From NCBI RefSeq assembly GCF_054482595.1, contig NZ_CM137008.1: DNA of 64,000 nucleotides. The stretch is one strand, 5' to 3'. This document shows, in pieces, positions 22,603-22,912 of this stretch; the first letter of the stretch is position 1; every line of letters starts with the position of its first letter. The notes below the pieces were generated by a model. That model was given only the letters and a program-made list of their open reading frames with translations. It ran no database searches and was not told the DNA's origin. The translations under genes were made by a program, and so were the position numbers.

Positions 22603-22912
22603 GCACGACTGCCGGATGCGGCGTGAACGCCTTATCCGCCTACATTTCGCCCGCAGGCCGTAGGCATGATAAGACGCGCATAGCGTCGCATCAGGCATCT
22701 GCGCACGACTGCCGGATGCGGCGTGAACACCTTATCCGGCCAACATTTCGCCCGTAAACCGTAGGCCTGATAAGACGCGCAAGCGTCGCATCAGGCATCT
22801 GCGCTCAACTGCCGGATGCGGCGTAAACGCCTTATCCGGCCTACATTTCGCCCATAAACCGTAGGCCTGATAAGACGCGCATAGCGTCGCATCAGGCATC
22901 TGCGCACGACTT
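22603..22912. repeat. REP/BIME array, about 3 tandem units of roughly 100 bp
   Basis: Repeated GCCGGATGCGGCGTGAACGCCTTATCCGGCCTAC ... GCCTGATAAGACGCGC ... GCATCAGGCATCTGC palindromic units; approximate bounds. Confidence 0.85.

Follow-up and report, generated by a model that had tools for sequence, protein, structure and literature searches.

The gap between the convergent genes frmB and yaiL is occupied by an element which is, with high probability, a BIME-2 made of three tandem 100-bp units, each pairing a Y REP with an inverted Z2 REP, in the 3' region shared by the two genes. This is the best overall explanation of the data obtained on the window, that is the whole stretch of 64,000 nucleotides (64 kb) that was analysed. 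Tandem Repeats Finder (TRF) reports at 22603-22911 a single tandem array with a period of 100, 3.1 copies, 91% matches, 1% indels and a score of 534, and an independent direct-repeat search places the copy starts 100 and 100 apart (family D3), the 100-nt copies being 94% identical. The three units of roughly 100 bp which an initial annotation had described at 22603-22912 are thus found again with coordinates right to within one base, and the periodicity on which that description depended is exact, with spacings of 100 and 100. The array takes up nearly the whole of the 325 bp that separate frmB from yaiL.

The REP core motif GCCKGATGCGNCG is present 36 times in the 64-kb window for 1.24 expected and none of 100 shuffled sequences reaches 36, hence the repeat is far beyond chance. 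Six of these sites are located inside the frmB-yaiL array, where their orientation alternates strictly. An assembly artefact was considered and rejected, as the same allele is present in ~ 28 independent complete genomes.

The names of the two flanking genes and their convergent orientation, as given by the initial annotation, were confirmed by NCBIfam and PF09831 matches and by RefSeq annotation (Table 1). At 22593-22601, frmB is closed by three successive in-frame stops, TAA TAA TAG, the corresponding triplet being TGA TAA TAG in K-12, W, O157:H7 and 536, while in ST131 the gene ends with TGA followed by a different leader (GCATCCGC...).

Table 1. Coordinates of the frmB-yaiL array, of its parts and of related features in the window.
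Feature	Position	Strand	Evidence or remark
frmR	20229-20525	+	equivalog-level NCBIfam model; RefSeq annotation of matching genomes
frmA	20560-21669	+	equivalog-level NCBIfam model; RefSeq annotation of matching genomes
frmB (fghA; S-formylglutathione hydrolase), last gene of frmRAB	21762-22595	+	TIGR02821, 397.9 bits; RefSeq annotation
Whole BIME-2 array	22603-22912	.	3.1 tandem copies, 100-bp unit; TRF and direct-repeat spacing of 100
Y REP, unit 1	22610-22643	+	33/35 identical to Y; RNA hairpin -14.5 kcal/mol
Head-to-head (S-position) linker, unit 1	22644-22659	.	ATTTCGCCCGCAGGCC
Z2 REP, unit 1, inverted	22659-22697	-	35/37 identical to Z2; score 59 against Z2, 30 against Z1
Tail-to-tail linker	22698-22709	.	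TCTGCGCACGAC, 12 nt
Y REP, unit 2	22710-22744	+	32/35 identical to Y; fold -15.9 kcal/mol
Z2 REP, unit 2	22760-22797	-	36/37 identical to Z2
Y REP, unit 3, intact	22810-22844	+	35/35 identical to Y; hairpin -21.3 kcal/mol
Z2 REP, unit 3, intact	22860-22898	-	36/37 identical to Z2
Rfam RF02564 naRNA4 match	22663-22741	-	71.8 bits; gathering score 59.5; model 1-77 of 77
Rfam RF02564 naRNA4 match	22764-22841	-	89.9 bits; gathering score 59.5; model 1-77 of 77
Equivalent of K-12 3' end 377325(-)	22907	+	tail sequence identity; inferred here from a K-12 datum
yaiL (DUF2058 protein, 179 aa)	22921-23460	-	PF09831, 198.8 bits; RefSeq annotation
mhpT/mhpE BIME-2 array	24867-25309		4.4 units of 101 bp and a terminal solo Y
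codB/prpE BIME-2 array, largest	47082-47798		7.6 units of 94 bp

Each unit is composed of a Y REP on the + strand, a 16-nt head-to-head linker, an inverted Z2 REP on the - strand and a 12-nt tail-to-tail linker, and the six REPs are palindromes of 34-38 nt that follow each other in the order + - + - + -. They were aligned to the Y, Z1 and Z2 queries from Durrant et al. 2024, with which the Y and Z2 consensus of Nunvar et al. 2010 (Table 1 of that paper) agrees. The + strand copies are identical to the published Y at 32-35 of 35 positions and the - strand copies to the published Z2 at 35-36 of 37, the latter scoring 59-69 against Z2 and 30-35 against Z1, with alignments that cover 22659-22696, 22760-22796 and 22860-22897. 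The 16-nt head linker, which joins the CTAC foot of a Y REP to the GTAG foot of the next Z2 REP, reads ATTTCGCCCGTAAACC or variants of it. The heptamer GCACGAC of the tail linker is also present at both edges of the array, at 22603-22609 ahead of unit 1 and at 22904-22910 behind unit 3, which is why 3.1 rather than 3.0 copies are counted.

The units are not equally well preserved. In unit 1, the Y REP is degenerate through a 1-nt deletion in its stem, with CCGCCTAC where CCGGCCTAC is expected, and the Z2 REP reads GTAGGCATGAT, with a C>A change that abolishes the target of the insertion sequence IS621 and with a hairpin of about -15 kcal/mol. The CTAC/GTAG foot is kept in five of the six REPs, the exception being the Y REP of unit 2, which has CAAC for CTAC and a weaker stem on the loop side (GAACACC). 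On the frmB transcript, the final hairpin is that of the unit 3 Z2 REP. On either strand, the predicted RNA hairpins of single REPs range from -14.5 to -21.9 kcal/mol, about -21 to -22 kcal/mol for the intact ones and about -15 kcal/mol for the damaged ones. Furthermore, for either strand of the whole region the predicted fold is far more stable than those of shuffled sequences (z = -6.8 and -6.5). The degenerate state of both unit 1 REPs and of the unit 2 Y REP fits neutral decay, and not a selection acting on every hairpin.

Ton-Hoang et al. 2012 describe the REP as an imperfect palindrome of 30-40 nt with a GTAG/CTAC foot, extragenic and present in many copies, and the array shows each of these traits: palindromes, CTAC/GTAG foot, extragenic location and a multicopy motif. 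According to the same authors, BIME-1 combines z1 and y around a long, IHF-binding L linker and is found in single copy, while BIME-2 is built of z2 and y, has short linkers and forms tandem arrays of several copies, the number of which varies among strains at a given locus. At the sequence level all features of the second class are found here, namely y with z2, their alternation with short linkers, and tandem copies that vary in number among strains. The REP/BIME label of the initial annotation is therefore right and can be narrowed to BIME-2, given the Y/Z2 alternation, the short linkers, the tandem units and the lack of an IHF site; indeed, the IHF consensus WATCAANNNNTTR is absent from the array on either strand. 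BIME-1 was rejected for the same reasons (Z2 and not Z1, a linker of 16 nt, no IHF consensus, tandem copies). A CRISPR-like or MITE reading was rejected as well, since the "spacers" are repeats as well and the palindromes that they separate are canonical Y and Z2 REPs.

The exact 11-mer ATCAGGCCTAC, which is the natural target of IS621, an IS110-family "bridge RNA" recombinase element, occurs in two of the three Z2 REPs, at 22761-22771 in unit 2 and at 22861-22871 in unit 3; in unit 1 it is spoiled by the C>A change. The frmB-yaiL BIME is hence a natural landing site for IS621. In strain Ecol_224 (NZ_CP018948.1), IS621 is inserted in the second-unit Z2 REP of the frmB-yaiL BIME, at ~ 1920-3205 of the extracted locus, and the junctions ...CCGTAG / IS621 / AGGCCTGAT correspond to the published target ATCAGGCCTAC with the CT core duplicated.

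The initial annotation had proposed a cross-strain comparison as a check, and this comparison reveals one, two or three units at the site. A query of 801 bp, comprising the array and both gene ends, was searched in 5,426 complete E. coli genomes; it matches 5,425 of them and the locus itself is covered in 5,287, the site being occupied in nearly all E. coli. Match spans of ~ 600, ~ 700 and ~ 800 bp represent one, two and three units respectively, as confirmed by the nine alleles that were read. In an evenly spaced sample of 40 records, 21 carry one unit, 16 carry two and a single one carries three; from this sample and the best 60 matches it is estimated that about half of the genomes have one unit and ~ 43% have two. 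Three units are present in 30 of the best 60 matches, that is in at least 30 genomes (~ 0.6%), and the three-unit state is thus rare; XH990 and O157:H16 Santai are examples of it. None of the alleles seen in the 40-record sample, among the best 60 matches or by reading has more than three units. By sequence, two units are found in K-12 MG1655 (223-bp gap), W and 536, and one unit in O157:H7 and ST131; by span, BL21(DE3), DH5alpha and J53 fall into the 700-bp class and strain 042 into the 600-bp class. The locus could be used as a three-state length marker, with ~ 125, ~ 225 or ~ 325 bp between the genes.

Among independent complete genomes, 14 contain the 801-bp stretch unchanged and ~ 14 more show this three-unit layout at 98.4-99.3% identity, so that the window-type allele (units a, b' and c') is present in ~ 28 genomes at 98.4-100% identity. 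Its units differ among themselves by 6-9%, hence this allele is not a fresh duplication. Judging from the alleles read, three-unit alleles have at least three separate origins, represented by the window type, KSC1031 and W284. In KSC1031 the order of units is exactly W.1-W.2-W.2, and the linker is recombinant, being the inner one of W; a single unequal exchange inside a short stretch of identity is expected to give this product. The W284 allele is a*-a*-W.2, with its first unit duplicated. As for alleles with a single unit, that of O157:H7 has the same sequence as unit 1 in the window and that of HH45 looks like a W.1/W.2 recombinant.

The number of units would shift by unequal homologous exchange or by replication slippage between the 100-bp direct repeats, and the activity of the REP-associated transposase (TnpA-REP) is a possible alternative. 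The allele data fit exchange or slippage and do not separate this mechanism from the cleavage-and-rejoining model of Ton-Hoang et al. for TnpA-REP. One-unit strains form the majority, which makes the extra units evidently dispensable, and the number of units is most likely near-neutral.

To look beyond E. coli, species-representative genomes were scanned with a degenerate pattern of the yaiL C-terminus, which gave at least 120 loci. Among the matches listed, frmB is convergent with yaiL only in Escherichia albertii and in one divergent "E. coli", each with a single unit, and in the other genera the 500 bp that follow yaiL contain neither frmB nor a Y/Z2 REP of the E. coli type. In E. albertii NBRC 107761, the gap holds one Y-like REP and a Z1-type REP (GCCTGATGCGCTACGCTTATCAGGCCT) separated by a 12-nt linker, and in the divergent "E. 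coli" the linker of the single unit is of 7 nt. Given that E. albertii has a Z1-type REP where E. coli has Z2, the type of REP at this fixed site has changed between sister species. The comparison suggests that the site has probably been occupied since before the split of E. coli and E. albertii and that its content has turned over.

The initial annotation regarded the array as a plausible bidirectional transcript boundary. No intrinsic terminator was found on either strand in 22300-23200, where no hairpin has a directly following U-tract. The K-12 MG1655 Term-seq data of Adams et al. 2021 (supplementary file 1, sheet LB 2.0), which concern a two-unit allele and in which reads ending in repeats are partly mis-assignable from BIME-2 loci sharing the Z2 REP and the tail linker, show a frmB-sense 3' end at 377325(-) that averages 100,650 reads in LB at OD600 2.0. 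The equivalent position in the window (Table 1) is 10 nt after the final paired nucleotide of the unit 3 Z2 hairpin. Since this 3' end follows the last hairpin and not the first, the K-12 frmRAB transcript crosses the whole array. In the yaiL sense, the same data, again from the two-unit allele, give weak curated 3' ends at 377694/377696(+), of about 1,400-1,550 reads, which are located ~ 385 nt past the yaiL stop and inside antisense frmB, and supplementary file 2 of Adams et al. 2021 reports a Rho termination region at 378012(+) (score 5.8, p = 1.7e-10). Projected on the window, the yaiL-side ends of K-12 correspond to ~ 22436 (-), ~ 160 nt inside the 3' end of frmB, and the Rho region lies deeper in the gene; frmB might be affected by convergent transcription that reads through the BIME.

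Hence the K-12 data bear out the proposed boundary in the frmB sense, with its strong 3' end 10 nt past the last hairpin, but not in the yaiL sense, in which transcripts end ~ 385 nt further on in antisense frmB, where the Rho region is found as well. A series of hairpins at transcript 3' ends is therefore a better description of the array than a terminator that works both ways. Dar and Sorek have described how polymerase passes REPs, Rho terminates downstream, and exonucleases trim the RNA back to a stable hairpin which protects the 3' end, and the K-12 ends fit this picture. The most likely role predicted for the array is thus that of an mRNA 3'-end hairpin stabiliser. RNA polymerase would transcribe into or through the array, and each REP would fold on either strand as a hairpin of -15 to -22 kcal/mol; 3'-to-5' exonucleases would then trim the transcript back to the outermost hairpin, setting and protecting the mRNA 3' end, and true termination would be largely Rho-dependent and take place further downstream.

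These transcript ends also bear on the possibility that the array is a true bidirectional terminator which stops RNA polymerase coming from frmB and from yaiL. Its position between convergent genes with no other structured element in the 325-bp gap, the strong frmB-strand 3' end seen after the last REP in K-12, and the Rho-dependent attenuation of transcription reported for BIMEs, as cited in Ton-Hoang 2012, Nunvar 2010 and Dar and Sorek, would be in line with such a function. We nevertheless consider it unlikely, given the absence of a hairpin with U-tract on both strands, the location of the yaiL-direction 3' ends and of the Rho region of K-12 hundreds of nt past the BIME in antisense frmB, and the fact that the frmB-strand 3' end comes after the last and not the first hairpin, polymerase having crossed the array. 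A small-RNA locus, in which the yaiL 3' UTR would be processed into naRNA4-like two-hairpin RNAs that bind HU, bridge cruciforms and condense the nucleoid, is quite unlikely. It is suggested by the two full-length RF02564 matches on the yaiL-sense strand (89.9 and 71.8 bits), each of which covers a Y hairpin, the tail linker and a Z2 hairpin, and by the findings of Qian et al. that ~ 80% of the REPs in E. coli give rise to RNA and that an RNA condenses DNA with HU only if it has two hairpins, for example Y and Z2. However, naRNA4 itself corresponds to a single Y-linker-Z2 unit taken from REP325. This BIME-2 has six units, and its RNA reportedly takes part, with HU, in condensing the nucleoid. 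RF02564 thus recognises any BIME-2 unit, and four units of the mhpT/mhpE array score equally well. Moreover, the central linker is unlike the naRNA4 consensus, the experiments in Qian et al. concern REP325 only, no processed RNA from the frmB-yaiL locus was found, and the single unit carried by most strains falls short of a full tail-linked Y-l-Z2 module. The matches are therefore treated as a generic BIME-2 signal which confirms the family of the repeat and does not point to a functional small RNA.

It is very unlikely that the number of units acts as a functional dial by which the stability of frmRAB or yaiL mRNA, the loading of gyrase or the supply of HU-binding RNA would be tuned. If it did, the repeated independent origins of three-unit alleles would reflect selection. 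This reading has no positive support, the one-unit alleles being the commonest and several REPs of the array decaying. There remains the coding of small proteins by the repeats, to which we attribute a negligible probability. Mechanical ORFs of 44-55 aa are indeed present in the six-frame list, at 22623-22757(+), 22732-22899(-) and 22546-22698(-), but the 100-bp unit is not a multiple of 3 and any gain or loss of a unit shifts the frame, alleles with one, two or three units and single-base indels within units are all common, and the REP palindromes fully account for the sequence. The frmB-yaiL gap holds no hidden gene and no novel RNA, and the small ORFs are artefacts of the repeat.

Two further properties of REPs may apply to the array along with the predicted stabilisation of 3' ends. 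As a general property reported for BIME-2, these elements are favoured by DNA gyrase, which cleaves them chiefly in their y REPs, and by analogy the Y REPs described here are, as duplex DNA, probably gyrase cleavage sites and the array is possibly a gyrase/HU site. The Topo-seq supplementary text makes no mention of yaiL, frmB or mhpT, which is an absence of mention and not a negative result. In addition, a REP located less than 16 nt after a stop codon reportedly stalls terminating ribosomes and lowers translation (rule given by Liang, Rudd and Deutscher 2015). The distance from the frmB stop to the first paired base of the first REP stem is 15 nt here and 13 nt in K-12, which would be at the edge of the limit as reported, and the 23 nt between the yaiL stop and the nearest REP stem would be outside of it.

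The class of the element, its position at gene 3' ends and its copy-number polymorphism have all been described before; the element is an ordinary one in a rare three-unit state. REP and BIME elements have been known since the 1980s/1990s and the variation of BIME-2 unit number among strains is published, hence the array has little weight as a discovery. With BIME-2 as described in the literature it shares the alternating y and z2 REPs, the short linkers, the tandem arrangement, the intergenic location at gene 3' ends, the homogeneity of units within a locus and the variability among strains, and no essential difference was seen; its tail linker TCTGCGCACGAC is given by its sequence and not as a published s, l or r type. 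The resemblance to BIME-1 consists of an inverted REP pair at the 3' end of a transcription unit, whereas BIME-1 has z1, occurs in single copy and contains a long L linker that is conserved and bears an IHF site. REP325/naRNA4, located between yjdM and yjdN, displays the same two-hairpin Y-linker-Z2 module, of which two matches exceed the gathering score here, but it lies at another locus with another linker ("l") and has six units compared to three, and the effect on HU and the nucleoid is that of REP325. Within the 64-kb window, the frmB-yaiL array is the smallest of three BIME-2 arrays, and the two others, at mhpT/mhpE and codB/prpE, have the same Y/Z2 architecture. The codB/prpE array differs by its own 11-nt head linker GGTTCAGGCCT. 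It also carries a Y variant (TGTCGGATGCGGCGCGAGCGCCTTATCCGACCTAC), and its higher-order TRF periods of 187 and 281 bp suggest that blocks of two or three units have been duplicated. In the mhp array, four units on the + strand are above the Rfam naRNA4 gathering score. This array has its tail linker TCTGCRCACGAC in common with the frmB array and its own 17-nt head linker GGATGGCGCGRGAATTT, while its terminal solo Y is followed by ATTTCGCCCGTA, which is the head linker of the frmB array.
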